DNA from: Somniosus microcephalus
Lineage: Eukaryota
Assembly: GCA_052327205.1 (NCBI GenBank)
Contig: CM126209.1
Location: forward strand, 200,632,001 to 200,696,000
Direction of reading: 5' to 3'
DNA length: 64,000 nucleotides
A program made the translations under genes and the position numbers. The notes under the pieces were generated by a model. It made no database searches. It was not told the DNA's origin and saw only the letters and a program-made list of their open reading frames with translations. The number at the start of each line of letters is the position of its first letter. Positions within the stretch are counted from its first letter, which is position 1. Below, in pieces: positions 1-52,749 of the stretch.

Positions 1-1162
1 AGATTGGGAACAGTTTAGGATTCAGCAAAGGAGGACAAAGGGATTAATTAAGAGGGGGAAAATAGAGTATGAGAGTAAGCTTGCAGGGAACATAAAAACT
101 GACTGTAAAAGCTTCTATAGATATGTGAAGAGAAAAAGATTGGTAAAGTCAAGCGTAGGTCCCTTGCAGTCAGAATCAGAGGAATTTATAATGGGGAACA
201 AAGACATGGCAGACCAATTAAATACATACCTTGGTTCTGTCTTCACAAAGGAGGACACAAATAAACTCCCAGAGATGTCGGGAAACATAGGGTCTAATGA
301 GAGGGAGGAACTGAATGAAATCAGTATTTGTAGGGAAATGGTGTTAGGGAAATTGACGGGATTGAAGGCTGAAAAATCCCCATGGCCTGATAATCTACAT
401 CCTAGGGTACTTAATTAGATGCATTGCTGGTCATCTTCCAAAATTTTATAGACTCTGGAACAGTTCCCATGGATTGGAGGGTAGCTAATGTAACCCCACT
501 TGGAAAACAGTGACAGGATCGGACAAAGTCAACATAGATTTATAAAAGGTAAATCATGCTTGACTAATCTACTGGAATTTTTTGAGGATGCAACTGGTAG
601 AATAGATAAGGGAGAACCACTGGATGTGGTGTATTTAGGCTTTCAGAAGGCTTTCGATAAGGTCCCACATAAGAGACTAGCATGTAAAGTTAAAGCACAT
701 GGGATTGGGGGTAAGGTATTGACTTGGATAGAAAACAGGTTGGCAGACAGGAAGCAAAGAGTTGGAATAAACCGGTATTTTTCCGAGTGGAAGGCAGTGA
801 CTAATGGGGTACCGCAGGGATCGGTGCTAGGACCCCAGTTATTCACAATATATATATTAATGATCTAGATGAGGGAACTAGATGTAATATCTCCAAGTTT
901 ACAGACAACACAAAGCTGGGTGGGCGTGCGTGCTGTGAGGAGGATGCAGAGAAACTCCAGTACAGAAGACAGTTGAGGCCAATTCATTAAATATATTCAA
1001 GAAGGAGTTAGATATATTTCTTAAGGCTAAGGGGATCACAGGATATGGGGAGAAAGCAGGGGCAGGGTACTGAATTTGGATGATCAGCCATGATCGCATT
1101 GCATGGCGGAGCAGGCTCGAGGGTCTGAATGGCCTACTCCTGCTCCTATCTTCTATGTTTCT
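1..1162 (+). mobile_element. CR1 LINE 3' portion (ORF2 RT remnant with internal deletions, 3' UTR)
   Basis: ORFs 125-418 and 500-868 carry CR1 motifs (GKSCLTNLLEFFE, AFDKVPH, GVPQGSVLGP); ends in GCCTACTCCTGCTCCTAT...TTCTATGTTTCTA; closely similar to 50546-52360. Confidence 0.95.
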
Positions 1163-3914: not shown

Positions 3915-4099
3915 TGTAATGATCAGTAACATGTCATTCTAGAATGGTACACTAGGTGGAGCTGTATGTTTAGTAGGGGGCTACCCACAAGGCAGTAGTC
4001 AAGATGGATGCCTGTACACTAGTCCACATGGCTGAATAAATGACTAGCTCAAGCTAGCTGTTCATAATGAAAAACGTCTATTTATTTATGAACATAACA
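3915..4099 (+). repeat. 5' LTR of Gypsy #1
   Basis: Direct repeat of 8932-9114; 4 substitutions and one 2-bp indel counted by eye. Confidence 0.97.
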
Positions 4100-4115
4100 T
4101 GGTACCAGGATTGGT
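4100..4115 (+). promoter_or_regulatory. Primer-binding site, probably tRNA-Leu(TAA)
   Basis: TGGTACCAGGA directly after the LTR, complementary to the recalled vertebrate tRNA-Leu(TAA) 3' end ...UCCUGGUACCA. Confidence 0.7.
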
Positions 4116-4145
4116 AATATCTGCTGAATATTGTGAAACGTGACA

Positions 4146-7100: not shown

Positions 7101-8790
7101 GAGGAGTCCGGGGAGGGAGGTGCGGGCAGGCGGCCGCCGGGAAAGCGGCCGGCCGCCGCTCCACCTTAATGCGCCGGCGCTACGTGCTGCAACATCCCGT
7201 TGAACAATCGTTGGTTGCGGCTGCCACGGGCGAGGCGGCCGCAACTGAATTTACCACGGCAACCGGGACGCTGCGCACACCGATGACGTCATCGGTGCCG
7301 GCACAGCGCTACCGGCTAACGCCGATGGTAGGGCCCAACGCAATTTCGATCGCGGCTATAATTCCGGCGCAAGGCCCTCTAACGCCTCTAATTGGGCGCT
7401 AACCCCACCGAATTTCTAGGCCATAGTGTTAGCAGATGCACTATCCCGAGCACCCACAATGAGTCATGTGAGCTCTACTGAGGAAGACGTGGATGGTCAT
7501 GTGAGTATGGTCACTGCTGCGCTGCCCGTGTCAGACACAAAATCAAAGCAAATAGCAGAAGAAACAGTAAAAGATACAGTGTTACAAACAGTAATAGAGA
7601 ACATTCATCATGGTTGGCCAAAAGGTTCCTGTCCAAAGTACTATCACATCAGGTCAGAGTTAAGAATTCGCAAGTGGACTATTACTAAAACAGAACAGAA
7701 TAGTCATTCCACAGGCTCTATGTGAAGACATGCTCAAAAGGATTCATGAGGGACACCTCGGAATTGAAAAATGCAAAAGGAGAGCAAGAGACACTGTTTA
7801 TTGGCCTGGCATAAATAAGGACATTGAGAACATGATAGGCATATGTGAGACATGTCAGAAACACCAAAACAAACAAGCAAAGGAACCAATGGTAGTAGCT
7901 GACTTACCAACAGCACCATGGCAAAAGGTTGGTATGGACCTCTTTCATTTGAATGGTAAAGACTATCTAATAGTGATTGACTACTTTCTAACTATCCTGA
8001 GATGGCGCTGCTCTCAAGCACATCAGCAAGCAGTGTCATACTGCATGTTAAATCCATCTTCGCAAGACATGGAATTCCCAGGATTGCCGTTAGCGACAAT
8101 GGTCCGTGCTTCAACTGTAAGGCGTGGCAACAGTTTGCAGCACATTATGACTTTCAGCACATCACATCCAGTCCTCTGTATGCTCAGTCGAATGGTAAGG
8201 CAGAGAAAGGTGTTCAAGTTCTCAAACAGCTACTGAAGAAAGCAACAGAAAGCAAGTCTGATCCTTATCTCGCCCTGCTGAGCTACCGAGCCTCCCCTTT
8301 AGACTGTGGTTCTTCACCTGCTGAACTCCTAATGGGTCGCAAGTTGTGCACCACGCTACCCTGCTGTGCAAAAGAAAAGCAGAGTAAGGAACTGAGACAG
8401 AGACTTCAATTGTTAAAGCTGAAACAGAAATCACACTATGACAAGTCATCCAAAACTCTGAAACCATTGACAAGGGATGATGTTGTCAGGATTGAGGATC
8501 CAGATGCATGGAACAGGAAAGCTACAGTTCTTGAGGAAGTAGGACCAAGGTCATACACTGTTAGAACTGAGGAAGGACAGATTCTCAGGAGGAACCGCCG
8601 TTCCCTCCTGAAAACACAAGAAACTATCCAAGAGCAAATCGATGACAATGCCGCAACTGAATCTTGTCACTCACCACCAGAACAATCTAACACAAACACA
8701 CATACAGGCTCTCATGAAAACACATCAGACTTACCTGTGCTGAGAAGATCCACACGTGAAGTAAAAAAGCCTGATAGACTTAATCTTTGA
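4146..8790 (+). pseudogene. Gypsy gag-pol pseudogene (gag CCHC, protease, RT, RNase H, integrase)
   Basis: Gag knuckle CTKCNGKNHFAKQC; PR LKLDTGA; RT KLDASQGFWQ, RMPFG, HVDD; RH YAQIEKE; INT HEGHLG...CETC, SDNGP, SNGKAEK; in-frame stop 4913-4915, further stops/frameshifts and a MITE insertion. Confidence 0.95.
6743..7422. mobile_element. PIF/Harbinger-type MITE inserted in Gypsy pol
   Basis: 12-bp TIR GGCCTAGAAATT / AATTTCTAGGCC; 3-bp TSD ATA (6740-6742, 7423-7425); excision restores YTPGKH-IVLADALSR. Confidence 0.93.
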
Positions 8791-8931
8791 GTACAAAGAA
8801 AACTATAATAAAAGAATGAAAAGCTTAAAGTTCATAAAGTAAAGCTTTGAAAATGTGTTGACTGTTGTGAAGATGTTTATGTCGTTATGATTGATTGATA
8901 TTGATTTTGTTTAACCTCTAAGGAAGGGGGA

Positions 8932-9114
8932 TGTAATGATCAGTAACATGTCATTCTAGAATGGTACACTAGGTGGAGCTGTATGTTTAGTAGGGGGCTA
9001 CCCACAAGGCAGTAGTCAAGATGGATGCCCGTATACTAGTCCACATGGCTGAATAAATGACTAGCTCAAGCTAGCTGTTCATAATAAAAAACGCCTATTT
9101 ATTTATGAATAACA
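8932..9114 (+). repeat. 3' LTR of Gypsy #1
   Basis: Direct repeat of 3915-4099 preceded by polypurine tract. Confidence 0.97.
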
Positions 9115-17645: not shown

Positions 17646-18145
17646 NNNNNNNNNNNNNNNNNNNNNNNNNNNNNNNNNNNNNNNNNNNNNNNNNNNNNNN
17701 NNNNNNNNNNNNNNNNNNNNNNNNNNNNNNNNNNNNNNNNNNNNNNNNNNNNNNNNNNNNNNNNNNNNNNNNNNNNNNNNNNNNNNNNNNNNNNNNNNNN
17801 NNNNNNNNNNNNNNNNNNNNNNNNNNNNNNNNNNNNNNNNNNNNNNNNNNNNNNNNNNNNNNNNNNNNNNNNNNNNNNNNNNNNNNNNNNNNNNNNNNNN
17901 NNNNNNNNNNNNNNNNNNNNNNNNNNNNNNNNNNNNNNNNNNNNNNNNNNNNNNNNNNNNNNNNNNNNNNNNNNNNNNNNNNNNNNNNNNNNNNNNNNNN
18001 NNNNNNNNNNNNNNNNNNNNNNNNNNNNNNNNNNNNNNNNNNNNNNNNNNNNNNNNNNNNNNNNNNNNNNNNNNNNNNNNNNNNNNNNNNNNNNNNNNNN
18101 NNNNNNNNNNNNNNNNNNNNNNNNNNNNNNNNNNNNNNNNNNNNN
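17646..18145. other. Assembly gap (500 N)
   Basis: Run of N. Confidence 1.
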
Positions 18146-19212: not shown

Positions 19213-20950
19213 CTAGCTGAAGTGCCCGCCGGTGCCGACGGGATTTTTGAGGGATAGTTGTTGTTGGAAGAGAGAGAGAGAGCGACTGGGGGGGAGAGAG
19301 AGAGAGCGAGCGACTGGGGGGAAGAGAGAGAGAGCGAGCGACTGGGGGGGAGAGAGAGAGAGCGAGCGACTGGGGGGAAGAGACTGGGGGGGAGAGAGGG
19401 AGAGCGAGCGACTGGGGGGGAAGAGAGAGAGAGCGAGCCACTGGGGGGATGAGAGAGAGAGCGAGCGACTGGGGGGAAGAGAGAGAGCGACTGGGGGGAA
19501 GAGAGAGAGCGACTGGGGGGAAGNNNNNNNNNNNNNNNNNNNNNNNNNNNNNNNNNNNNNNNNNNNNNNNNNNNNNNNNNNNNNNNNNNNNNNNNNNNNN
19601 NNNNNNNNNNNNNNNNNNNNNNNNNNNNNNNNNNNNNNNNNNNNNNNNNNNNGAGGGGAGGCGGGGGGGAAGGGGGGGAGGGGGGAAGGGGGAAGGGGAG
19701 GGGGAAGGGAGAGGGGGGAATGGGGTGGAGGGGAGGGGGAGGGGGGAATGGGGGGAGGGGAGGGAGGAATGGGGGGAGGGGAGGGGAGGGGGGGTGTGGG
19801 GGGAGGGGAGGGGGTGGAGAGGGGGGAGGGGAGAGGGGGGGAGAGTGGAGGGGAGGGGGGTTGTGGGGGGAAAAAGGGAGGGGGGGAGCTAGCAGACCCG
19901 ATGGCTCCGCGGAGCTCCGTGCCGCCCCACGCACTGACATGGCTCAGCCCGAGCCCCGCCCTCCTGAGCACCGGCCTCCGGAGCCCCGTCCTCCCGCTCT
20001 CTGGAGCCCTGCCCTCCTGCTGCGCTCTCCCGAGCCCCGAGCCCCGCGCGCATGCCCTCCCGAGCTCCGCCTTCCCGAGCCCCGCCCCCCCGCCCGAGCC
20101 GGCTTCAAGACCAGAGAGATGCCGCCGTGCAACCTACCGCGTGAGACCCGGCCGGACTCAAGTCGCGCTCCGGGCGGAAGATGACGCGGACGCTGACTCC
20201 CGCCCCGCCCGCCTTTACAAAGATGGCGGCGGTGGTGATGCTCGGCTCAGGCCCGCCCCCTCCAGCCTTCACAAAGATGGCGGCGATCGCTGGCCTTTTG
20301 TCGATCGTGGCGGGAGGCACCTAGCTCGGGCGTGGCTGGTCAACAGACGCCCAGGCTTTGAGGCCTGGAAAATGGTGAAAGGTAGGAAAATTATAGAGGT
20401 TAGACAAAAGATTTACAAATTAATTAACTTCTTTTAAAAACAATTTGTCTTTTAAAAGCAACTATTTTTTTTGCTGGAAATGTAGATTTGAAAAGAAACA
20501 CGCAGAAAGCATGAAAAAGAAATGAAAAGTTTGGAATCAAGATGGCGGCGACTCACCTCGGTTCAGAACGATAAGGCCCGCCCACACACGCACCGATTGG
20601 TGGACCATTAGGTCACCGAAGCTTAGGATTGGTCAATCGTCCCATCACTAGATCGTAGGAGGGCCCGCCCGCACGCGCCAGGAACCTGCCGTACGATTGG
20701 TCGACCTCGACGTCACTCGATGCTAATGAGCGGATAATGAGCGGAATATGTTGAATGTTTTTTGGATACCGCAGGCGCAATTTTTGTCTGGCCGAAACGT
20801 AAATACGCTTAGGACGGTTCTGGAATCGTCAGCTTTCTTTCGATGTAACACACGTGTAGGTACGCTCTATAATTTTCAAGTTTATTCAATACAGACAGAC
20901 AGACAGACGGAATGACAGACAGACAGATGTATCCTTTTATATATATATAA
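19213..20950 (-). mobile_element. Non-autonomous Helitron copy 2
   Basis: Minus-strand 3' end CCCGTCGG-CA-CCGGCGGG hairpin, 8 nt, then CTAG (19213-19216); 5' end TATATATAAAAGGATACA-(TCTG)n; no TIR or TSD. Confidence 0.85.
19266..19890. repeat. ~30-bp GAGAGAGCGAGCGACTGGGGGG minisatellite and G-rich tract (contains 129-N gap 19524-19652)
   Basis: Tandem units and G-runs directly visible. Confidence 0.9.
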
Positions 20951-22103: not shown

Positions 22104-22236
22104 CTTAGAGGAGTAAGTGTGGCCATCAGAACCACAGACAGAACTGGGGTGCACCACTGCACAAGGCTTGCATTTGACCAAATTGGCTCCTCCGACCCGT
22201 TGTCTATGAAGATGACTGTCCTTTTTCTGTCTGACG
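22104..22236 (-). CDS. spock1: Internal coding exon of testican-1 (start of Kazal-like domain)
   Basis: TTTTGTTTTGCAG| acceptor and AAG|GTAAAG donor; 133 nt (1 nt + 44 codons) reading VRQKKDSHLHRQRVGGANLVKCKPCAVVHPSSVCGSDGHTYSSK; matches recalled human SPOCK1 RQKKGNVAQKHWVGPSNLVKCKPCPVAQSAMVCGSDGHSYTSK, closer than SPOCK3. Confidence 0.9.
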
Positions 22237-32107: not shown

Positions 32108-32308
32108 TATTATATATTATGTGTTCTCCTCCCACCTGCGGTGGCGCTGTCACAGCAGATAAATGGTTGGGTTTGTTCTCTTGGTTGGGTTTTTGTTCTC
32201 TTTGTTCTGTTCTCTCCAGAACCTTCCTTTTGAATAAAGAAGCCTCATGTTTGAATCTCTGGGTTCTGAGCATTTATTGTGTCTAGGTATAAAGGTACAG
32301 ACACAACA
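32108..32308 (+). repeat. 5' LTR of Gypsy #2 (TG mutated to TA)
   Basis: Direct repeat of 36570-36770 with about 5 substitutions by eye. Confidence 0.95.
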
Positions 32309-32311
32309 AAG

Positions 32312-32324
32312 TGGCAATGAGGAT
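32312..32324 (+). promoter_or_regulatory. Primer-binding site, probably tRNA-Ser(GCT), CpG-decayed
   Basis: TGGCAATGAGGAT differs from TGGCGACGAGGAT by two CpG-type transitions. Confidence 0.65.
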
Positions 32325-32448
32325 CGGATGAATCTGCGTTGTGGGAACTTTCTTGTTTTCGACTACAAAACACTCGGAACAGAGATTGCAGCATTACATT
32401 AATGTTACGGGTGCAGTGAGTAACAGAAATTCAAATTTGAAACGTGAG

Positions 32449-35400
32449 ATGGCTACTATATTCGGAAACATCTGTGATTTCGATGAAAATGTTGAGCAAT
32501 GGAGCGCTTATACGGAACGTTTTGACTATTTTGTTTTGGCGAATGCGGTGGCAAACGATAAGGATGTGCCTACCTTTTTGAGTATAATGGGAGCAAAGAC
32601 ATTCAATTTACTGCGCAGCACTGTACAGCCAGTTAAGCCAGGATCTAAAACATATAAACAACTAGTGGAAATTCTTGGAGCACATTTTTCACCGAAACCT
32701 CTGGTTATTGCTGAGAGATTTAGATTTCACAAATGGAATCAAGAGGAGGGGAAACAGTGACTATGTTTGTTGCTGCTTTAAAAAGGTTGTCAGAACACTG
32801 CGAGTTCAAGGAGGTGCTGAATGACACCATTAGAGACAGACTTGTGTGTGGTCTGCAAAGTGCAGCCACACAGAAGCGCCTTCTTACTGAGGACAACCTT
32901 ACTCTTGAAAAGGCCATTGAAGTTAGTGTCTCCGTGGAGATGGCGGAAAAGGAGGCTCACCAGTTTAGTTCAGCAGGGAGAGTTCACAAGGTGTCGTCTG
33001 AGCCAAAAGGTGCGCGGAACGGCACATGTTACCGTTGTGGGAAAAAGGGCCATCACGCTAATGACTGCTGGTGTACGGAGCTGGAATGCCGAAATTATGG
33101 CAAAAAGGGTCACATTGAATGTTCTTTTTTTACCTCTACAGGCACGGACAGAGCTGGGAAGCATGAAAGCAAAATGTCTGTATTTGGATAAGAGAAGAAA
33201 AAGAGTGTTCATTCAGTGCAGTATGATGGAACAAGCAAAACAGAGGGGAGCGACATCTCTGAGGAGGAAGAGGTGCACATACTGACGGTTGCAGGTGGTC
33301 CAAATGGCTACTGGGTGTCACCACTGGTGGAGGGACAATCAGTGCGGATGGAGGTGGACACAGGCGTGGCTGTGTCCCTTGTTTCAGGCACTGTCTACAA
33401 CAAAATGCTAAAGCATCTTACCCTTCAGCCAACAAACATTGTGCTAAAGACGTATACCGGCGAACCTGTGGCCATGAGAGGCGCCATTGAGGTGACAGTT
33501 AAATTGAATGGACAGACTGCGAAATTGCCACTATGTGTGGTAAAGGGAAATTACCCATCTCTACTGGGACGTGCGTGGCTAGAGAAAATCACACTGGACT
33601 GGCCTGCAGTCCGCATGATGTCAAAAGGGGAGTCAGGTATGACTGCAGTTTTAAACAAACATGCAGAACTCTCCAATGGTGAACTTGGGAACATGAAAAA
33701 GATTAGCGTGAGACTGAACATTAAACCTGACAGCAAGCCGAAGTTTCACAAAGCCTGACCTGTACCCTATGCAATTAGGCCAAAAGTTGAGGTTAACTTG
33801 GAGGCCTTAGTCGAGAATGGAGTCCTGGAGCCTGTGAGCATGAGCAAATGGGCCACACCCATTGTTCCTGTCCTGAAAAAGGATGGATCTATTCAAATCT
33901 GCGGGGATTTTAAAGTGACTATTTACCCGGTGCTGTCTGCGGAACAGTACCCTCTTCCCCTCATTGGTGATCTTTTTACGGGCCTGGCCGGAGGGCAAAA
34001 GTTCAGCAAAATAGACTTATGCCAGGCTTATCTACAAATGCATGTTGATGACAAATCAAAGGAGTTGCTGACAATTGTGACACACAAGGGGCTATACAGG
34101 TACTGCCGCCTTCCGTTTGGAATTATGTCGGCCCCTGCTCTATTCCAAAGGACAATGGATCAGATTTTGAGTGGACTGCCAGGAGTCCAGTGCTACCTGG
34201 ACGACATCCTTGTCACTGGGACAAATGAGGAGGATCATCTTCTGAACTTGGATGCGACACTACAGCGACTGAAAGAGTACAGACTCAGAGTTCGTAAGGA
34301 CAAATGTGAATTCTTTCAGTCTTCAGTTGAGTACCTGGGGCATGTGACTGACGCTACTGGCCTGCATAAGGCGCCGTCAAAGGTCAAGGCGATCGTGGAG
34401 GCCCCAGCACCCCAGAATGTGAGTCAGTTACATTCATTCCTGGGGCTACTTAACTACCATGGAAAGTTTATTCCAGACTTAGCAACATTGCTGAAGCCGC
34501 TACATCAGTTGCTATGTCAAGGCAAAACATGGAAATGGACTGAACTGTGCAACGAAGCTTTCGTCCAAGCAAAGAAAGCATTGCTGAAGTCAGAGGTCCT
34601 GACACACTTCGACCCAAAGCTACCCGTGCAGCTAGCATGTGATGCATCACCATATGGTGTGGGAGCAGTCATATCCCACATCATGCCTTCTGGTGAAGAG
34701 AAACCTATCGCCTTTGCATCACGCACCTTGAACAAGGCCAAGAGTAACTATGCACAGATTGAGTGCGAGGTCTTGGGAATTGATTTTGGAATTCAAAAAT
34801 TTCATCAGTACCTGTTTGGGAGAAGGTTCACACTCCTGACGGACCACCGTCCATTGACTTCAATCTTCGGGCCCCACACCGGAATTCTGTCTCTTGCTGC
34901 AAGTAGGATGCAAAGGTGGGCTTTACTGTTGTCAGGACACACATACGACATCAAATATTGCAAATCAGACTTGCACGGCAATGCAGACGGTCTCTCGAGG
35001 CTGCCCTTGCCTGTTACTCCCCAGAGCCTCGTCAGATAGACATTTTCTACTTTAGACAAGCGGAGGACCTGTCACTGCAGTTCAGGTGCGAAGGTACACC
35101 CGCAATGATGCAGTCCTGTCTGAGGTAATGGACGATGTCATTCGAGGGAGAGCTATAGGAGATTCTCCTAGTTTGAAACCTTACGTTTCAAAAAGAAATG
35201 AGCTCTCCGTCCAGGCAGGTTGTCTTCTCTGGGGATGTCGTGTCATCCTTCCGCCACCTCTGAGGGAACCTGTAGTGCAACAACTTCATACAGGCCACAG
35301 TGGGATGGTTCGGATGAAGGAAATGGCAAGAAGCTACTTCTGGTAGCCAGGTCTCGATGGAAATATTGAGGAGAAAGCCAAAACATGTTCCCCGTGTCAC

Positions 35401-36413
35401 AGGGTCCGGAATGTTCCACAGCTGGCAACCCTACACCCCTGGGATTGGCCTGAAGAAGTGTGGTAGCGAGTACATGTGGACTTCGCCGGTCCTTTCGAAG
35501 AGAAGATGTTTATGGTGGCTGTGGATGCTCGTAGCAAGTGGCTGGAGGTCGCTGTGATGAGGTCTACCACGGCAGAGAAGACAATTGAGAAACTTGGTGA
35601 GATGTTCAGCCGTTATGGCTCACCGGAACAACTCGTAAGTGACAATGGTCCACAATTTGTATCACAGGAGTTTGCAACCTTCCTGCAAGTGAATGGTGTC
35701 CAACACATCAGGTCTGCGCCCTATCATCCCTCTACTAACGGCCTGGCAGAAAGGTTCGTGTAAACTTTGAAGGCATTGCAAGGTCAGGGCTCAATCCACC
35801 AACGTCTGAACAGCTTCCTGTTGTCCTACAGGAACGAGCTGCGTGCCACAACCAAAACTTCCCCCGCTTCGCTCATGATGAAGAGGCAGTTGCGGACAAG
35901 TTTTGACTTACTCAAACCTCCAAGAGCAGAACAGGTTGTCCGTCAACAACAAGCTCAAGTTGAAAGGAGAGAGAAAAGAGCCAAGGAGAGACGGTTTCAT
36001 CCTGGAGAGCACGTCCTAGCTCGAAACTACAACACTGGACCGAAATGGGTTCCTGCTACGGTGATCGCGCAGACGGGCCCTGTGTCTTACACGGTTGAGA
36101 CTGCTGAGGATGTCATCTGGAGAAGACACACTGATCAACTGTTGCTAGGAGCAGAGACAGCCACAGAGGCTCCAAGGCTGGTTGGCCTGAACTGTTTCCG
36201 GATGATACCACAAACCAGCATCTTTTGCCACAGTGCTCTTCTCCAACACAGGAAGTCAAAGAAACTGTTCCACCTGTGCAAACTCATGACTTTCGACTGA
36301 CACATGCACCTTCTCTATCTAGGCCTGTGTCAATGCCTACTGCTGTGGAAGCCAGCGACGACCGCCGGTATCCTGTCAGAGAGCGGCGGCCTCCAAGACG
36401 CTTGGATCTGTAG
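32449..36413 (+). pseudogene. Gypsy gag-pol pseudogene
   Basis: Gag ERFRFH, CYRCGKKGHHANDC; PR MEVDTG; RT RLPFG, YLDD; RH ACDASPYG, TDHRPL; INT LHTGHSG, SDNGPQF, NGLAERF; multiple stops/frameshifts. Confidence 0.95.
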
Positions 36414-36569
36414 GCTTAGTGACTTACCCACAAGACTGGGGCAGAATAAACCCCAGGGTAAAGTCAGGGTTTGAGGCAGTCTACCTCTACCCTTGGTTAG
36501 TTGAGTGCATTGAAAGTAACTTACCTGTTGAGGAATAATGTGGACATTTCATTTAAGAGGGGAGGAATA

Positions 36570-36770
36570 TGTTATGTATTATGTGTTCTCCTCCCACCTG
36601 AGATGGCGCTGTCACAGCAGATAAATGGTTGGGTTTGTTCTCTTGGTTGGGTTTTTGTTCTCTTTGTTCTGTTCTCTCCAGAACCTTCCTTTTGAATAAA
36701 GAAGCCTCATGTTTGAATCTCTGGGTTCTAAGCATTTATTGTGTCTAGGTATAAAGGTACAGACACAACA
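36570..36770 (+). repeat. 3' LTR of Gypsy #2
   Basis: TG...CA, preceded by PPT. Confidence 0.97.
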
Positions 36771-37051
36771 AATACCAATACACCATATTATATTGGCAGA
36801 TGACAGGAACTGTATACAATGATTAACATTACTAAAACTTTAACAATTTGATGTCTAGACCCTGCATGAACTTGTTCTTTGCTCACATTGTCAAGACTGC
36901 CATTTTGGAACCTGCAGAATAAGTATCTAGGCTATGACAGCATGTTACAAAAAATAGCTTTGGTTGCTGAAAAGAACAAATGTCCTCCAATTAAAATGTT
37001 TAAACTTCATTTATGATATAAAGCTCATTTAGTATTGTACACATAACTACT

Positions 37052-42620: not shown

Positions 42621-43089
42621 CTCAGTTCCTTGGCATGCTTCCTTCCATCTGGTACTACCTCAACTATGAAATACTTTAATTGAGGTAACAAATATATCTT
42701 GAGCAAAAAAAAAGTCCCCCAAAACATTCTCAAATTTAAAAAAAAATCAGAAATATGGGCGGCAGCAGCGGACCTGCGGGAGACGAGGCGGCTGAGCGGC
42801 GGCGGTTATTTAAACCAGCGGCAGAGACTAGGTAGGCTTACTAATCTCTAGGGAGGGAGAGAAGTCAAAAGTAATCGAAGCGTGACGTCACCAGAAAGCA
42901 GGTAAGTGATTGGTTGGTGAGTATTTCTCTCTTTTTAAACTTTAACTCTGTGGTTTATAGTTTCTAGGGTCTCTGTGGTGTAGCGGGGACTGTTGGTAAA
43001 CCAGGGCCCTTAATTATATCATTTAACTGTAGTGTAATTGGTGGGATTGATTTGATTTAATTTAATTTGAATTAATTAAAGGGTAAGTC

Positions 43090-44026
43090 ATGGCAGGAGA
43101 GCCCGGCCCCGTGGAATGCTCCTCCTGCGCTATGTGGGAACTCAAGGACACTTCCTGTGTCCCTGACAACCATGTGTGCAGGAAGTGTGTCCAGCTGCAG
43201 CTACTGGCAGACCGCATTGCGGCGCTGGAGCTGCGATTGGATACATGCTGGACCATTCGCGATGCTGAGGACGTCGTGGATATCACGTTTAAGCAGTTTG
43301 TCACAACGCAGGCAAAGGTTGGACAGGCAGAAAGGGAAGGGGTGACCAACACAGAGTAGTAGGCGCAGGCAGGTAGTGCAGGGGTCCCCGGTGGACATCC
43401 CCCTCTCAAACAGATATACCACTTTGAATACTGTTGAGCGGGATGGCTTATCAGAGGAAGGCAGCAGCAGCCAACTTCCTGGCACCAGGGGTGGCTCTGC
43501 TGCACAGGACGGGAGGAAAAAGAGGGGTAGAGCTATAGTAATAGGGGATTCTATTGACAGGCGTTTCTGCGGCCGCAAACGAGACTCCAGGATGGTGTGT
43601 TGCCTCTCTGGTGCAAAGGTCAAGGATGTCTCAGAGCAGCTGCAGAACATTTTAGAAGGGGAGGGTGAACAGCCAGTTGTCGTGGTGCATATAGGTACCA
43701 ACGATATAGGTAAAAAACGGGATGAGGTCCTAAAAGCTGAATATAGGGAGTTAGGAGGTAAATTAAAAAATAGGACCCCAAAGGTAGTAAACTCAGGATT
43801 GCCACCAGTGCCGCGTGCTAGTCAGAGTAGAAATAGAAGGATATTTCAGATGAATACGTGGCTAGAGGAATGGTACAAGGGGGAGGGATTCAAATTCCTG
43901 GGACATTGGAACCGGTTCTGGGGGAGGTGGGACCAGTACAAACCGGATGGTGTGCGCCTGGGCAGGGCCGGGACCGATGTCCTAGGGGGAGTGTTTGCTA
44001 GTGCTCTGGGGGAGGGTTTAAACTAA
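43090..44026 (+). pseudogene. CR1-A ORF1: CxxC/CxxC zinc finger, leucine zipper, SGNH esterase
   Basis: CSSC...CRKC, LQLLADRIAALE; IVIGDS, HIGTND, DGV; stop at 43357-43359 and frame change. Confidence 0.9.
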
Positions 44027-44136
44027 AATGGCAGGGGGTTGGGAACCTGAGCAGGGAGACAAAGGAAAGGGAAACAAGGATAAAAGCAAAAGATAGGAAG
44101 GAGAAAAACAAAAGTGGCAGTCAGAGAAATCAACAG

Positions 44137-44986
44137 GGCAGCAGCGGGGCTATAAAAGTCCCAGAGACCAGGTAAGGCCTCAGTGTGTCGGCGGGTGTTT
44201 CAGCGGCAGCAGCGGGGCTATAAAAGTCCCAGAGACCAGGTAAGGCCTCAGTGCGTCGGCGGGAACTCGGCGGCAGCAGCGGGGCTATAAAAGTCCCAGA
44301 GACCAGGTAAGGCCTCAGTGCGTCGGCGGGAACTCGGCGGCAGCAGCGGGGCTATAAAAGTCCCAGAGACCAGGTAAGGCCTCAGTGCGTCGGCGGGAAC
44401 TCGGCGGCAGCAGCGGGGCTATAAAAGTCCCAGAGACCAGGTAAGGCCTCAGTGCGTCAGCGGGAACTCGGCGGCAGCAGCGGGGCTATAAAAGTCCCAG
44501 AGACCAGGTAAGGCCTCAGTGCGTCGGCGGGAACTCGGCGGCAGCAGCGGGGCTATAAAAGTCCCAGAGACCAGGTAAGGCCTCAGTGCGTCGGCGGGAG
44601 CTCGGCGGCAGCAGCGGGGCTATAAAAGTTCCAGAGACCAGGTAAGGCCTCAGTGCGTCGGCGGGAACTCGGCGGCAGCAGCGGGGCTATAAAAGTCCCA
44701 GAGACCAGGTAAGGCCTCAGTGTGTCGGCGGGAGCTCGGCGGCAGCAGCGGGGCTATAAAAGTTCCAGAGACCAGGTAAGGCCTCAGTGCGTCGGCGGGT
44801 GTTTCAGCGGCAGCAGAGGGGCTATAAAAGTCCCAGAGACCAGGTAAGGCCTCACAGCGTCGGCGGGAACTCAGCGGCAGCAGCGGGGCTATAAAAGTCC
44901 CAGAGACCAGGTAAGGCCTCAGTGCGTCGGCGGGAACTCAGCGGCAGCAGCGGGGCTATAAAAGTCCCAGAGACCAGGTAAGGCCT
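44137..44986 (+). repeat. 13-copy tandem array of 67-bp monomers (CR1-B 5' UTR), each with TATA, Inr and 5' splice-site motifs
   Basis: TATAAAAG starts at 44151, 44219, 44286, 44353, 44420, 44487, 44554, 44621, 44688, 44755, 44823, 44890, 44957. Confidence 0.97.
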
Positions 44987-45043
44987 ACCAATCTCCAGTC
45001 TGGGAACTCGGAGGGAAGGAGAGAGGTAAAAAGTAATCCAATG

Positions 45044-45083
45044 TGACGTCACCAGAAAGCAGGTAAGTGATTGGTTGGTGAGT
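45044..45083 (+). promoter_or_regulatory. Conserved CR1 5' UTR block: CRE, splice donor, reverse CCAAT
   Basis: TGACGTCACCAGAAAGCAGGTAAGTGATTGGTTGGTGAGT, identical at 42883-42922 in element A. Confidence 0.6.
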
Positions 45084-45206
45084 ATTTCTCCATTTTTAAG
45101 CTTAAATCTCTTTGGTTTATAGTTTCTAAGGTGTGATATTCACCATCTAGAATCGGGGCAGAGGGTATTTAAGAATAATATTAATAAATTTAATTAATTA
45201 CATAGA

Positions 45207-46163
45207 ATGGGAGATCAGGTGATGTGTTGCTGCTGCAATATGTGGGAGCTGGTGGACACCATTGATGCTCACGGTGATCACATTTGCAGTAAGTGTTGGC
45301 TGCTCGAGGAATTCCGGCTCCGTGTTGAAGAGCTGGAGTCCGAGCTTCAAACACTGAGACACATCAGGGAGGGGGAGAGTTACCTGGACTCTGTGTATCA
45401 CGAGGTATTCACACCAATTAGATTAATTAATTCAGATGTAGTCCGTGGCCAGGGTCAGGATGGTGTGACTAGAAGTGAGGCAGGTACGGGGATCCAGGAG
45501 GTAGTGTTGGAGGAGCCGCAGCCCTTGCACTTGTCCAACAGGTTCGAGGCTCTTAGTCCCTGTGAGGATGGGAACAGGGACTGCGGGGAGGATGAGCAAC
45601 CCGGCCACAGCACCGTGGAGCAGGGGGCCATTCAAGTGGGGGGAGTTAAAAGAAATGTTGTAGTAGTAGGGGATAGTATCGTTAGGGGGATAGATAGAGT
45701 TCTTTGCAGCCGAGAGCGTGAGTCCCAAAGGCTGTGATGCCTGCCCGGTGCCAGGGTTAAGGACATCTCCTCTGGACTGGAGAGAAACTTGGAGTGGGAG
45801 GGGGAGGATCCAGTTGTCGTGGTCCATGTTGGTACCAATGACATAGATAGGACAAGGAAGGAGGTTCTGCTGAGGGAGTTTGAGCAGCTAGGGGCCAAAT
45901 TAAAAAGCAGAACCACAAGGGTAATAATCTCTGGATTATTACCTGAGCCACGAGCAAATTTGGCTAGGACAAATAAAATTAGAGAGTTAAATGCGTGGCT
46001 CAAAGACTGGTGTGGGAGAAATGGGTTTTGCTTCCTGGGACACTGGCACCAGTACTGGGGCAGGAGGGAGCTGTTCCATTGGGACGGGCTTCACTTGGCC
46101 AGTGCTGGGGCTAGAGTCCTGGCAGATCATATAACTAGGGCTGTAGAGAGGGCTTTAAACTAA
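45207..46163 (+). pseudogene. CR1-B ORF1 (zinc finger, zipper, SGNH esterase) with one in-frame stop
   Basis: CCCC...CSKC; VVVGDS, HVGTND, DGLH; TGA at 45735-45737. Confidence 0.9.
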
Positions 46164-46424
46164 CTAGTGGGGGGGAGGTTCCTAGAGAGCAAATAATAAA
46201 AATGACAACAGAGAAGGTCATAGACTTAGGTAGCAGTGGGGAAATTAAAAGCCAGAGCGTGTCAGGAAGGGGCAGAAGGTATGGAGTAAAAGGTAAAGTA
46301 ATAAAAAGGGCAAAAGCAGGAACTAAGTGTCACAAAACATATTTGAAAGTTCTCTATCTGAATGCACGTAGCATTCGTAACAAAATAGACGAGTTAATGG
46401 CACAAATAACTACATATGGGTATG

Positions 46425-46592
46425 ATCAAATCAAAAAAATCAAATCAAATCAAATTTTATTGTCATTGTTAGTGCACAAGTGCAGTACAACGAAATGTAG
46501 GCTTGCGGCTCCCGAGAGTGTACATTTGGACATTTAAACATTCAACATACATTTGGCTTGTAGTATATTAACATAAATATGACCATAATAAA
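46425..46592 (-). mobile_element. Short 3'-tail fragment of a Rex1/Babar-like LINE inserted in CR1-B endonuclease
   Basis: Minus strand ends AATAAAATTTGATTTGATTTG; interrupts YGYD/VVITETWL. Confidence 0.6.
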
Positions 46593-47489
46593 GTGGTCAT
46601 TACAGAAACATGGCTGCAGGGTGACAATGCCTGGGAATTAAACATAGCAGGTTATTTAACGATCAGGAAGGACAGGCAGGAAGGAAGGGGAGGTGGGGTG
46701 GCTATGTTAATAAAGGAAAGAATCACTGTAATACAGAGAAATGATATAGGGTCAAAAGATCAGGATAATGAAACAGTTTGGGTGGAGGTAAGTAATAATA
46801 AGGGGAAAAAAACACTAGTGGGTGTAGTCTATAGGCCTCCGAACAGTGGCAACTCTGTTGGACGGAGTATCAATCAGGAAATAGTTGAGGCTTGTAATAA
46901 GGGAACATCTATAATTTTAACTATCATATTAATTGGACAAATCAAATTGGGCAGGGCTGCCTTGAGGATGAGTTCATTGAGTGTATTAGGGATGGGTTTC
47001 TTGAGCAGTATGTAACTGAATCAACCAGGGGGCAAGCAACCTTAGATCTGGTCCTGTGTAACGAGACAGGATTAATTAAAAATGTCCTAGTAAAGGATCC
47101 CCTTGGAATGAGTGACCATAACATGGTTGAATTCCATATTCAATTAGAGGGTGAGAAGGTTGGATCTCAAACAAGCGTGCTAAGCTTGAATAAAGGAGAC
47201 TATGAAGGTATGAGAGCAGAATTGAGTAGAGTGGATTGGGAAAATAGATTAAAGGGTAAGACGATACATGATCAGTGGTGTACATTTAAGGAGTTATTTT
47301 ACAACTTCCAAAAAATATATATTCCACTGAGAAGAAAAGGGTGTAAAAGAAAAGACAGCCATCCGTGGCTAAGTAAAGAAATTAAGGATAGTATTCGACT
47401 AAAAACAAGGGCATATAAGGTAGCCAAATCTAGTGGGAGGATAGAGGATTGGGAAAACTTTAAAAGACAGCAAAAAATTAAAAAAAAGA

Positions 47490-49271
47490 TTGATTAAGAA
47501 AGGGAAGATAGATTATGAAAGTAAATTAGCAAAAAATATAAAAACAGATAGTAAGAGTTTTTATAGTTATATAAAAAGAAAAAGGGTGGCTAAAGTAAAT
47601 GCTGGTCCCTTAGAGGATGAGACCGGGAAATTAATGGTGGGAAATATGGAGATGGCAAAAACACTGAATGAATATTTTGTATCAGCCTTTATAGTAGAGG
47701 ACACTAAGAATATCCCAACACTGGACAAACAGGGGGCTATAGGGGGGGAGGAGCTAAACACGATTAAAATCACTAAGGAAGTGGTACTCGGTAAAATAAT
47801 GGGACTCAAGGTGAATAAATCACCTGGACCTGATGGCTTACATCCTAGGGTCTTGAGGGAAGTGGCGGTAGGGATTGTGGATGCATTGGTAATAATTTTC
47901 CAAAACTCCCTGGACTCGGCAAAGGTCCCGGCAGACTGGAAAACTGCTAATGTAACACCCTTATTTAAAAAGGGCAGTAGACAGAAGGCTGGAAACTATA
48001 GATCGGTTAGCCTAACATCTGTGGTAGGTAAAATTTTGGAGTCCATTATTAAGGAGACAGTAACAGGACATTTGGATAATCATAATTTAATAGGACAAAG
48101 TCAGCATGGTTTTATGAAGGGGAAGTCATGTTTGATAAATTTGCTGGAGTTCTTTGAGGAAGTAACATATAGGGTGGATAAAGGGGAACCAGTGGACGTA
48201 GTGTATTTAGACTTCCAAAAGGCATTTGACAAGGTGCCACACAAAAGATTATTGCTTAAGATAAAAAATCACGGGATTGGGGGTAATATTCTGGCATGGA
48301 TAGAGGATTGGCTATCTAACAGAAGGCAGAGAGTTGGGATAAATGGTTCATTCTCAGACTGGCAATCAGTAACTAGTGGTGTTCTGCAGGGGTCAGTGCT
48401 GGGTCCCCAACTCTTTACAATCTATATTAATGATTTGGAGGCGGGGACCGAGTGTAACATATCAAAGTTTGCAGATGATAATAAGATGGGAGGGAAAGTA
48501 GTGAGTGAGGAGGACATAAAAAACCTGCAAGGGGACATAGACAGGCTAAGTAAGTGGGCAGAGATTTGGCAGATGGAATACAATACTGTAAAGTGTGAGG
48601 TTATGCACTTTGGCAGGAAAAATCGTCGAGCAAGTTATTATCTTAATGGCAAGAAACTTGAAAGTACTGAAGTACAAAGGGATCTGGGGGTCCTGGTGCA
48701 TGAAACTCAAAAGGTTAGTATGCAGGTGCAGCAAGTGATTAAGAAGGCCAATGGAATGTTGGCTTTCATTGCTAGGGGGATAGAATATAAAAATAGGGAG
48801 GTATTGCTTCAGTTGTACAAGGTATTGGTGAGACCGCACCTGGAATACTGCGTACAGTTTTGGTGTCCATACTTAAGAAAGGACATACTTGCTCTCGAGT
48901 CAGTACAAAGAAGGTTCACTCGGTTAATCCCAGGGATGAGGGGATGGACATATGAGGAGAGGTTGAGTAGATTGGGACTCTACTCATTGGAGTTCAGAAG
49001 AATGAGAGGCGATCTTATTGAAACATATAAGATTGTGAAGGGGTTGGATCGGGTGGATGCGGGGAGGATGTTCCCGATGATGGGTGAAACAAGAACTAGG
49101 GGGCATAGTCTTAGAATAAGGGGCTGCTCTTTCAAAACTGAGATGAGGAGGAACTACTTCACTCAGAGGGTGGTAGGTCCATGGAATATGCTGCCCCAAA
49201 AAGCTGTAGAAGCTACATCATTACATAAATGTAAAACAGAAATAGAGTTTCCTAGAAGTAAAGGGAATTAA
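47490..49271 (+). pseudogene. CR1-B ORF2 reverse transcriptase region (593-aa open segment; upstream frameshifts)
   Basis: QHGF, YLDFQKAFDKV, QGSVLGP, KFADD. Confidence 0.93.
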
Positions 49272-52200
49272 GGGTTATGGGGAGCGGGCAGGAATTTGGA
49301 CATGAGTCTAGGTTCAGATCGGTCATGGCCCTGTGGGTAGCGGAGCGGGCCCAGGGGCCGTGTAGCCTGATCCTGCTCCTATTTCATGTGTCTAATTCTG
49401 TTAGATTCAGGAGATGGTTCTGTGATAGTGGATTGGCGGTTAGGATCAGATCAGCCATGATCTTATTGAATGGCGGAGCAGGCTCGAGGGGCTGATTGGC
49501 CTACTCCTGCTCCTATTTCTTATGTTCTTATGTTCTTAAATCAAACATGGCCACAGTAAGTAATAATTCTAATAGGTCTAAGAGCATTAAAAAAACAAGC
49601 CTGAAGGCTTTGTGTCTTAATGCGAGGAGCATTCGTATAAGGTGGATGAATTAGTTGCGCAAATAGAGGTAAACGAATATGATTTGATTGGGATTACGGA
49701 AACATGGCTCCAGGGTGGCCAAGGCTGGGGACACAACATCCAGGGGTATTCAATATTCAGGAAAGATAGGCAAAAAGGAAAGGGAGGTGGGGTAGCATTG
49801 CTGGTTAAAGAAGGGATTAACACAATTGTAAGGACGGATATTAGCTCTGATGATGTGGAATCTGTATGGGTAGAACAGAGAAATACCAAGGGGCAGAGAA
49901 CGTTAGTGGGAGTGGTATATAGACCTCCAAACAGTAATGCGGAGGTTGGGGATGGCATTAAAAGGGAAATTAGAGAAGCATGCAATAAGGGCACAGCAGT
50001 CATCATGGGTGACTTTAATCTACATATAGATTGGGCTAACCAAATTAGTAACAATACTGTGGAGGAGGAATTCCTGGAGTGTCTACGGGATGCTTTCCTG
50101 GACCAATATGTCAAGGAACCAACCAGAGATCAGGCCATCTTAGACTGGGTATTATGTAATGAGAAAGGATTAATTAGCAATCTTGTTGTATGAGGCCCCT
50201 TGGCTCGGAGCGATCATAATATGATAGAATTCTTCATTAAGATGGAGAATGAAGTAGTCGACTCAGAGACTAGGGTCCTGAATTTAAATAAAGGAAACTA
50301 CGATGGCCTGAGGCCCGAATTGGGTAGGATTGATTGGGGAATGTTACTCAAAGGGTTGACAGTGGATAGGCAATGGCAAACATTCAAAGACCGCATGGAT
50401 GAACTACAGAATTTCTTCATCCCAGTTTGACATAAAAATAAAACAAAAAAGGTGACTCAACCGTGGCTAACAAGGGAAATTAGGGATAGCATAAGATCCA
50501 AGGAGAGGACATATAAATTGGCCAGAAAAAGCAGTAAACCTGAGGATTGGGAGCAGTTTAGGATTCAGCAAAGGAGGACAAAGGGATTAATTAAGAAGGG
50601 GAAAGTAGAATATGAGAGTAAGCTTGCAGGGAACATAAAAACTGACTATAAAAGCTTTTGGTTCTGTCTTCACAAAGGAGGACACAAATAACCTCCCAGA
50701 GATGTTGGGGAACATAGGGTCTGATGAAAGGGAGGAACTGAAAGAAATCAGTATTTGTAGGGAAATGGTGTTAGGGAAATTGACAGGATTGAAGGCCGAT
50801 AAATCCCCAGGGCCTGATAATCTACATCCTAGAGTACTTAAGGAAGTGGCCCTAGAAATAGTAGATGCATTGCTGATCATCTTCCAACATTCGATGGAAT
50901 CTGGAACAGTACCCATGGATTGGAGGGTAGCTAATGTTACCCCACTATTCAAAAAAGGTGGTAGAGAGTAAAGGGGGAATTACAGACCGGTAAGCCTGAC
51001 ATCGGTCGTGGGGAAAATGCTAGAGTCCATTATAAAAGATGTAATAGCAGAGCACTTGGAAAACAGTGACAGGATCGGACAAAGTCAACATGGATTTACA
51101 AAAGGTAAATCATGCTTGACTAATCTACTGGAATTTTTTGAGGATGTAACTGGTAAAACAGATAAGGGAGAACCAGTGGATGTGGTGTATTTGGATTTTC
51201 AGAAGGTTTTCGATAAGGTCCTGCATAAGAGATTAGCATGTAAATTTAAGGCACATGGGATTGGGGGCAAGGAATTGACTTGGATAGAGAACTGGTTGCC
51301 AGGCAGAAAGCAAAGAGTTAGAATAAACGGGTCTTTTTCCGAGTGGCAGGCAGTGACTAGTGGGGTACCGCAGGGATCGGTCCTTGGACCCCAGCTATTC
51401 ACAATATATATAAATGATCTAGATGAGGGAACTAGATATAATATCTCCAAGTTTGCAGACGACACAAAGCTGGGCGGGCGTGTGTGCCTTGAGGAGGATG
51501 CCGAGAAACTCCAGGATGATTTGGACAGGTTGGGTGATTGGGCAGAAGCATGGCAGATGCAATATAACATGGATAAATGTGAGGTTATCCACTTTGGTGG
51601 CAAAAACAGGAAGGCAGATTATTATCTGAATGGCAATAGATTGGGAGAAGGGGAAGTGCAACGAGATCTGGGTGTCCTTGTGCACCAGTCGCTGAAGGTA
51701 AGCATGCAGGTGCAGCAGGCCTTTGTAGCGAGAGGGTTTGAGTACAGGAACAAGGATGTCTTGCTGCAGTTGTACAGGGCCTTGGTGAGACCACATCTTG
51801 AGTATTGTGTGCCGTTTTGGTTGCCTTATCTGAGGAAGGCTGTTCTTGCCATGGAAGGAGTTCAGCGAAGATTCACCAGGCTGATACCTGGGATGCCTGG
51901 AATGACTTATGAGGAGAGATTGGGTCGATTGGGCTTATACTCTCTGGAGTTTAGAAGAATGAGAGGGGATCTCATTGAAACTTATAACATTCTGACAGGA
52001 CTGGACAGACTAGATGCAGGAAGGATGTTCCCGATGGTCGGGGAGTCCAGAACCAGGGGTCACAGTCTAAGGATAAGGGGTAAGCCATTTAGGACAGAAA
52101 TGAGGAGGAATTTCTTCACCCAGAGAGTGGTGAACCTGTGGAATTCTCTACCACAGAAGACAGTAGAGGTCAATTCATCAAATATATTCAAGAAGGGGTT

Positions 52201-52749
52201 GGATATATTTCTTAAGGCTAAAGGGATCAAGGGGTAGGGGGAGAAAGCAGGGACAGGGTACTGAATGTGAATGATCAGCCATGATCGCGTTGAATGGCGG
52301 AGCAGGCTCGAGGGGCTGAATGGCCTACTCCTGCTCCTATCTTCTATGTTTCTATGTTTCTAATTGTGCTAGGTGTTCATTTAAATATTTTTGATTCAAA
52401 TCTGGGGCTAATGGGATGTGCATATCGGCACATTAAATGCAACAGACTACGGAACTCAGCCCACTGGGAAATGGGTGCAGGGCCTGCTCTCCTAATTCTC
52501 CAATCCCCCTCTTGTGCTGCAGCTGCTCTCCCAACCTGTAGCAACAACAACTTCATATTGTTCCTTTAAAGTAAAGGACGTTCTAAAATGCTTCAAAGGT
52601 AGGTGTGAGAAAACACTGAGCCAGAAAGGGAGAACTGACCAAAGGGTTGGTCCAAGAAATGGGTTTTGATAAGAATTTTAAAGGGGGCGGAGGAGGAGAA
52701 GTAGAGAGGTTTAAGGAGGGAATTCCAGAAAGTTGCGTGAAAGCCAGAA

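Follow-up and report, generated by a model that had tools for sequence, protein, structure and literature searches.

The window analysed here, a 64,000-nt stretch of the Somniosus microcephalus genome, contains two CR1 LINEs, one nested in the other, and the 5′-end of the inner element consists of a tandem array of short monomers (Table 1). The outer CR1 spans about 42758–52362, and the inner one sits in its ORF1–ORF2 linker. An exon with a Kazal domain, presumably part of a testican/SPOCK1-like gene, is found on the minus strand, and both CR1s are thus antisense to the host gene; the initial annotation had placed the array antisense to spock1, and the orientation holds for the gene carrying the Kazal exon, while the name spock1 is tentative. 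The window also includes two LTR retrotransposons (3915–9114 and 32110–36772), with terminal repeats of 185 bp (96.8%) and 201 bp (98.0%), respectively, both with broken gag-pol-like frames and Gypsy-like by inspection. Two N gaps (17646–18145 and 19524–19652) adjoin GC-rich low-complexity repeats, indicating that the assembly struggles with such sequences, which bears on the copy number of the array.

Table 1. Features of the nested CR1 elements and of the host gene. Positions are those of the window; a slash marks a splice junction or a start, and TATA+n is counted from the first T of the TATA word.
Feature	Position	Strand	Remarks
Host-gene exon with Kazal domain	22104..22236	-	E 4.9e-6
Outer CR1, 5′ leader	42758..42849	+	starts with GGCGGCAGCAGCGG; one homologue of the monomer
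Outer CR1, copy of the CRE/donor block	42850..42970	+	
Outer CR1, ORF1 (esterase)	43090..44026	+	broken
Left target-site duplication, AAATCAA	44127..44133	+	may reach 9–10 nt with a 1-nt deletion
Tandem array, inner CR1 5′-end	44137..44986	+	12 complete units of 67–68 bp, then 44 nt of a 13th
First TATAAAAG	44151..44158	+	TATA box of unit 1
Further copies of TATAAAAG	44219, 44286, 44353, 44420, 44487, 44554, 44621, 44688, 44755, 44823, 44890, 44957	+	
5′ splice-site-like CAG/GTAAGG of the first monomer	44169..44177	+	8/9 to the U1-pairing ideal
Inr-like CTCA(+1)GT, unit 1	44179..44184	+	A at 44182, TATA+31
Inner tether	44987–45206	+	unique stretch joining the array to ORF1
Divergent tail of unit 13	44987..45011	+	leaves the repeat at TATA+30
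Conserved 5′UTR block, inner CR1	45012..45132	+	109/122 identical to outer 42850–42970
Inner CR1, ORF1	45207..46163	+	Cys-rich N-terminus, SGNH/GDSL esterase; in-frame stop 45735–45737
Inner CR1, ORF2	46139..49300	+	endonuclease and RT; three frame changes, ~157-bp insertion
Inner CR1, 3′UTR, duplicated	49309..49537	+	degenerate copy 49309–49391; terminal copy 49441–49537
Right target-site duplication, AAATCAA	49538..49544	+	directly after the tail
Outer CR1, remainder	49538..52362	+	ORF2, 3′UTR and TTTCTATG tail; continues past the inner insertion

The element that begins with the array is a CR1 LINE of a cartilaginous fish, full-length but decayed, and nested in a second CR1. The array, the ORFs and the tail are enclosed together in a 7-bp target duplication, whose chance occurrence was estimated as 114/198011 trials, and the presence of AAATCAA at both ends implies that array and inner CR1 were inserted together; no target duplication was found at the junctions of the outer CR1. 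The CR1 identity of the element, as initially proposed, is supported by its esterase ORF1 and by the endonuclease and reverse transcriptase (RT) domains, and agrees with the RT tree. The two ORF1s match Lipase_GDSL_2 (E 1.1e-11 and 3e-10), the Cys pattern being visible in the alignment of the relatives; RVT_1 is recognized with E 5.8e-27 in the inner and 2.8e-31 in the outer element, and Exo_endo_phos with E 4.5e-11 in the outer element and 0.013 in the inner fragment tested, where tblastn spans the endonuclease region. In a 15-row tree, built without an L2 outgroup and with database rows not labelled as CR1, the RTs of both elements group with chondrichthyan relatives (100/96); with the RTs of birds and turtles they share 47–51% identity. 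Relatives of ORF1 occur in Hemitrygon (76% identity), Scyliorhinus (62%) and Callorhinchus (50%), in keeping with a cartilaginous fish as host.

Other observations concern the same element and its relatives. ORF1 relatives at 37–40% identity are also present in teleosts (Paramormyrops, Pygocentrus), and a complete CR1-like ORF2 is filed under a Carnobacterium name, probably as a result of host contamination. Among prokaryotes, an ORF1 alignment yielded 44 candidate stretches, of which two were confirmed; at 23–27% identity these are unrelated esterase loci and were left aside; the exact 27-nt core motif had no match in the bacterial/archaeal genome collection. The insertion in the inner endonuclease (46421–46585) begins with AAATC repeats and is bounded on both sides by an 8-nt duplication that differs at one position; it resembles the 3′-end of a different retroposon in minus-strand orientation. 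The terminal copy of the inner 3′UTR comprises a stem-loop and the TTCTTATG tail, and the same 3′ stem is predicted in the terminal UTRs of both CR1s, at z values of only -1.5 and -1.7; at six ends in the window the 3′ tails (TTCTTATG or TTTCTATG) are short tandem repeats, not poly(A). The upstream copy of the inner 3′UTR is only 74% like the terminal one, a divergence far above the decay of the element, and was therefore probably inherited from the source lineage.

The array is the highest scoring of the 38 rows returned by TRF for the 64-kb window (period 67, 12.7 copies, 95% matches, score 1542), and the TRF consensus is the same as that of the initial annotation, which had counted 13 tandem monomers of about 67 bp; ten of the full units are 67 bp long, while units 1 and 10 have 68 bp. 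All 13 units contain both TATAAAAG, a match to TATAWAWR, and the donor-like CAG/GTAAGG, which is located between the TATA box and the start motif, as had been noticed for the shorter CAG/GTAAG. The spacing of 31 nt between the first T of the TATA box and the A of TCAGT, reported earlier for 44151 and 44182, recurs in 12/12 full units; in unit 11 the start motif reads TCACAG, and unit 13 is without TCAGT. Upstream of TATAAAAG, the BREu element is matched at 5/7 positions, as scored at 44219 and 44957. The donor of the following unit has its G 58 nt past the predicted +1 (44182 to 44240), close to the distance of about 56 nt first given, which needs this correction. No ATG is present in the array. 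The CpGs, previously described as intact, number 65 of the 73 expected, and 7/8 losses are CpG-to-TpG/CpA transitions, a pattern that points to past methylation rather than to full protection. Searches of the window with blastn and nhmmer detected, outside the array, only words of 11–16 nt shared with the unit, one of which leads to the outer CR1. Past unit 13, the divergent tail carries T/A (+30) and C/A (+33) starts, and a degenerate second half of a monomer (44996–45011), absent from the outer CR1, follows.

The leader of the outer CR1 contains a single homologue of the monomer, with an alignment score of 59 against a mean of 21 and a maximum of 37 in shuffled sequences (0/2000 reach 59). 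This homologue maintains an AT-rich island, TATTTAAA at 42807, which is one base off TATAWAWR, a 5/7 BREu match, a weaker GT donor (TAG/GTAGGC at 42832) and a T/A start at TATA+33. The occurrence of a unit homologue at the same place in a second element indicates that the unit is an amplified CR1 5′ module and not a foreign satellite; the finding that a homologue heads the outer CR1, and that the array lies inside the target duplication, argues against a CR1-independent satellite, one of the cases that the initial annotation had named as refuting its model. The array is thus very probably derived from CR1 and was inserted together with the element.

Downstream of the array, the two CR1s share a block that includes, in the inner copy, the CRE palindrome TGACGTCA at 45044, a donor CAG/GTAAGT at 45063 and an inverted CCAAT at 45069; the core (45043–45087) is identical at 45/45 positions. 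With 89% identity, this 5′ block shows the same degree of conservation between the two CR1 families as do their terminal 3′UTRs (77/88 identical, 87.5%), far above the ORFs, which are 54–68% identical. A 16-mer of the unit that includes the donor is found again, at two mismatches, within this block in each of the CR1s but at no other place in the window, and the 5′UTR conservation ends right after two candidate acceptors. The sharing of the block could reflect strong constraint, exchange of 5′UTRs between families or local gene conversion. The only ATG of the inner 5′UTR (45041–45046) is directly followed by TGA, forming a start-stop that overlaps the CRE and is absent in the outer element; in the latter, a further donor-like AGG/GTAAGT (7/9) occurs right before the ORF1 ATG (43080–43092).

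The presence of a consensus TATA box in a unit with 63% GC is unusual: TATAWAWR arises in 214/200000 dinucleotide shuffles of the unit. The spacing to the start motif is weak evidence when taken alone, as BBCABW is found at +28..34 in 22 of these 214 shuffled units and at 8/60 background TATA sites of the window, a chance of about 10–13%; moreover, the 12 spacings within the array are duplicates of a single observation. The initially proposed canonical TATA–Inr spacing stands as regards the 31 nt and the fit of the motif to BBCABW at +31, while the strict YYANWYY consensus fails. The triple of TATA, Inr and donor did not occur in 200000 shuffles (0/200000), the motifs having been picked after viewing the unit. 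The invariance of TATA and donor across the units is not significant (estimated p about 0.1), because the array contains so few mutations.

Thirteen donors matching the ideal at 8/9 positions and one at 9/9 (CAG/GTAAGT) are located upstream of the candidate acceptors ending at 45122 and 45130. The inserted inner copy is unspliced; splicing from these donors to 45122/45130 would delete the promoter, as occurs in the human SpIREs. An intron between the donor at 45063 and the same acceptors would measure 59–68 nt. In human L1, a conserved donor near the 5′-end and acceptors before ORF1 allow a splicing event that removes the promoter and yields dead copies (PMC5860796). Human L1 has a single donor, whereas the shark CR1 has 13 in the monomers in addition to the 9/9 one. 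The conservation of the human donor has been explained by an overlapping RUNX3 site (PMC5860796), and thus a donor-like word can be conserved without U1 binding.

Taken together, the array probably has a promoter function. The main reading, to which a probability of about 0.5 is assigned, is that of a redundant promoter array like the mouse L1 monomers, with starts set by the TATA box and with the CRE/CCAAT block as activator. U1 recruitment can aid initiation. A module of about 67 bp from the CR1's own 5′-end, with the GC-rich leader, the TATA box, the donor-like motif and the start site, would at first have been duplicated, after which unequal exchange or slippage would have multiplied it; the array reached the site at 44137 together with the element, in one retrotransposition. 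Each unit may act as an RNA polymerase II core promoter whose TATA sets the start about 31 nt downstream, under activation from the downstream CRE/CCAAT block; the transcript would lose its own TATA and retain all the downstream units, so that daughter copies would stay transcribable. The donors may bind U1 without splicing, or may be spliced to the 45122/45130 acceptors, giving an mRNA that yields promoterless copies. The present inner copy, which is decayed and probably methylated, would be 5′-truncated inside a monomer.

The odds of a TATA-directed start at +31 in the monomers are about even, as judged from the sequence. A complete insertion has its 5′-end at the start site of its parent, and the 5′ truncation sites that are common in mouse L1 mark start sites (PMC6454616). 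The 5′-end of the inner CR1, a single genomic 5′-end, coincides with position 1 of the unit (or with 64, should the short target duplication be right) and not with 46, that is, 19–22 nt downstream of the predicted +1. The promoter-array model of the initial annotation is favored by the outer CR1, where the unit, a TATA-like box, a donor and a pyrimidine/purine start at +30–33 are kept, while the position of the 5′-end, which is not at the Inr, is against it. A less likely alternative, with perhaps half the weight of the main reading, takes the array as one of the ordinary internal type: transcription would start, via downstream elements, at the G of C/GGC(GGC)AGCAGC, the inner copy would be exactly full length, and the TATA-like word would be transcribed as a passenger or as a secondary start. 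In line with this alternative, both CR1s begin within 3 nt of this motif, with the 14-mer GGCGGCAGCAGCGG, and in both a G takes the place of the C of the inner unit; GGCAGCAGCGG is also the motif at which the outer CR1 begins, and its sole TATA-like box is 49 nt internal. The junction G could be an extra cap-derived G, which marks the 5′ junctions of full-length L1 insertions (PMC11702581), but target-site sequence explains it equally well in both elements, and these are two cases in all. An internal start has also to be reconciled with the rarity of a consensus TATA in so GC-rich a unit, and with the maintenance of TATTTAAA and of T/A at +33 in a second family. Furthermore, unit 13 tracks the consensus to position 44 and departs from it at TATA+30, one base before the predicted +1, suggesting that the natural unit spans from one predicted start to the next; by chance, 7/67 phases of the repeat boundary would fall in the 28–34 window, and the argument is weakened by the degenerate monomer half downstream (44996–45011), which allows another history.

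The history of the array is recorded in the variants of its units. One variant is common to units 7 and 9 and a second one to units 8 and 10, as expected of a two-unit duplication (7–8, 9–10), and a rare block is present in both unit 1 and unit 10; thus the array turns over. This variant sharing resembles the internal templating of mouse monomer additions, in which internal monomers serve as template for the 5′ additions (PMC6454616). Private differences within the array amount to 0.35–0.47%, which fits the age of the element, estimated from one stop in 3537 coding nt as 0.7% (95% range 0.02–3.8%), and therefore expansion after insertion is not required. Inheritance of the array from the source element is sufficient; local expansion or homogenisation is neither required nor excluded. 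It is in this respect that an unlikely alternative has to be considered, namely a minisatellite-like expansion of a CR1 promoter fragment, in this copy or in its source only, with no adaptive role and with the CRE/CCAAT block as the promoter. The outer CR1 has one unit only and there is no second array in the window, so that one of the two CR1s having an ORF1 there carries it; GC-rich repeats of such size are generally known to expand readily, the deamination-type CpG losses suggest silencing, and the wide age interval permits some local homogenisation. A local origin is opposed by the location of the array exactly at the 5′ terminus and inside the target duplication, by a divergence that matches the point-estimate age of the element, and by the divergent terminal unit and the internal-to-terminal variant sharing, which resemble L1Md arrays (PMC6454616).

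A non-promoter origin, be it as a satellite independent of CR1, as an artefact of the assembly or as a self-cleaving ribozyme in tandem making the 5′-end, is very improbable and these readings are largely refuted: the two N gaps leave room for a mis-assembled copy number, and the fold of unit dimers is somewhat better than that of shuffled sequences (z -1.8 and -2.7), but the unit has a homologue at the 5′-end of the outer CR1 and lies within the target duplication, the patterned unit variants speak against a pure artefact, and the outer leader folds no better than shuffles (z 0.35). As regards ribozymes, there was no Rfam match at E up to 1; on either strand of the array segment scanned, which for the relaxed HDV-like descriptor comprised the first four units, and of the outer leader, neither a hammerhead core nor a match to that descriptor was found, and the six matches of the descriptor in the post-array segment, of which those listed are in the AT-rich end, were taken as loose-pattern noise.

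Returning to the redundant promoter array, the closest known systems are the monomer arrays in the 5′UTRs of mouse L1Md A/Gf/Tf (PMC6454616, PMC9022269, PMC7778262, PMC5381506). In both cases, CpG-rich repeats are arranged head-to-tail at the 5′ terminus, with a partial 5′-most unit and a unique tether to ORF1, and the redundancy is proposed to preserve the promoter through truncation. Unlike L1Md, the shark element belongs to the CR1 clade and its unit is 67 bp long, against about 200 bp; its array has 12.7 units, while no more than 10 are present in 99% of young mouse promoters (PMC7778262). The shark unit combines a consensus TATA with a strong donor-like motif, whereas TATA boxes are described as lacking from the regulatory regions of L1 (PMC7778262). 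With its esterase ORF1 and repeat tail, the element would thus work like an L1Md monomer promoter without being an L1 member. In rat, hyrax, horse and elephant as well as opossum L1 5′UTRs, motifs of about 70–100 bp are duplicated (PMC5381506); these duplications comprise two or three copies and belong to the L1 clade, and only in mouse L1 are the repeats said to be close to the 5′-end (PMC6454616).

Within CR1, a 32-bp direct repeat in the promoter region was reported for a turtle CR1 (Kajikawa 1997) and a pufferfish CR1-like LINE (Poulter 1999), as cited in PMC2734521. The shark array is similar to these in having direct repeats in the promoter region, and the two GGCGGC-rich motifs of the outer CR1, about 30 nt apart, may also be compared with them. 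Since such repeats are on record, 5′UTR repeats in CR1 are not unprecedented, and the novelty claimed by the initial annotation, which knew of no such description in CR1, is smaller than stated. E boxes, which PMC2734521 describes as obvious in vertebrate CR1, are reported for the amniote CR1-B type and are absent in chicken CR1-F, and are not universal in CR1; no E box (CANNTG) was found in the inner or outer 5′UTR. In the literature searched, Repbase and Dfam being outside this scope, no description of a monomer array in a shark or other CR1 was found, which is weak evidence. What seems new here is a CR1 monomer array with TATA-containing units, as drawn from one copy and one informative relative. 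Drosophila HeT-A is said to follow a "promoting in tandem" logic, by which the upstream promoter is lost from the transcript and a redundant copy replaces it, and retroviral LTRs reportedly do likewise. Within a telomeric array, HeT-A relies on the 3′-end of the element next to it, whereas the redundancy of the CR1 would be internal to its own 5′-end. A bolder proposal can be put forward only tentatively, namely a cartilaginous-fish CR1 family with true upstream TATA–Inr promoters, which would outlast the loss of these promoters in every round by keeping them in an expanding tandem array, whose unit runs from start to start and supplies a U1-binding donor to each first exon.

The origin and upkeep of monomer promoters are described as unresolved for mouse L1 (PMC6454616); CR1 provides an independent case, and its short units, together with a natural one-unit relative that has the downstream core in common, make it a simple system for comparisons and reporter work. 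If the TATA box is a passenger, the finding amounts to a modest convergence. If instead it sets the start, the element would be an exception to LINE promoters being TATA-less and internal, and sharp starts phased at 67 nt, together with spliced promoterless copies, are predicted. Such a TATA-driven array, if true, would bring an LTR-like logic of promoters into a LINE, in convergence with the mouse L1 monomers but made of other parts. CR1-like elements are abundant in shark genomes (PMC1513397), and therefore promoters of this kind could feed intronic antisense transcription.
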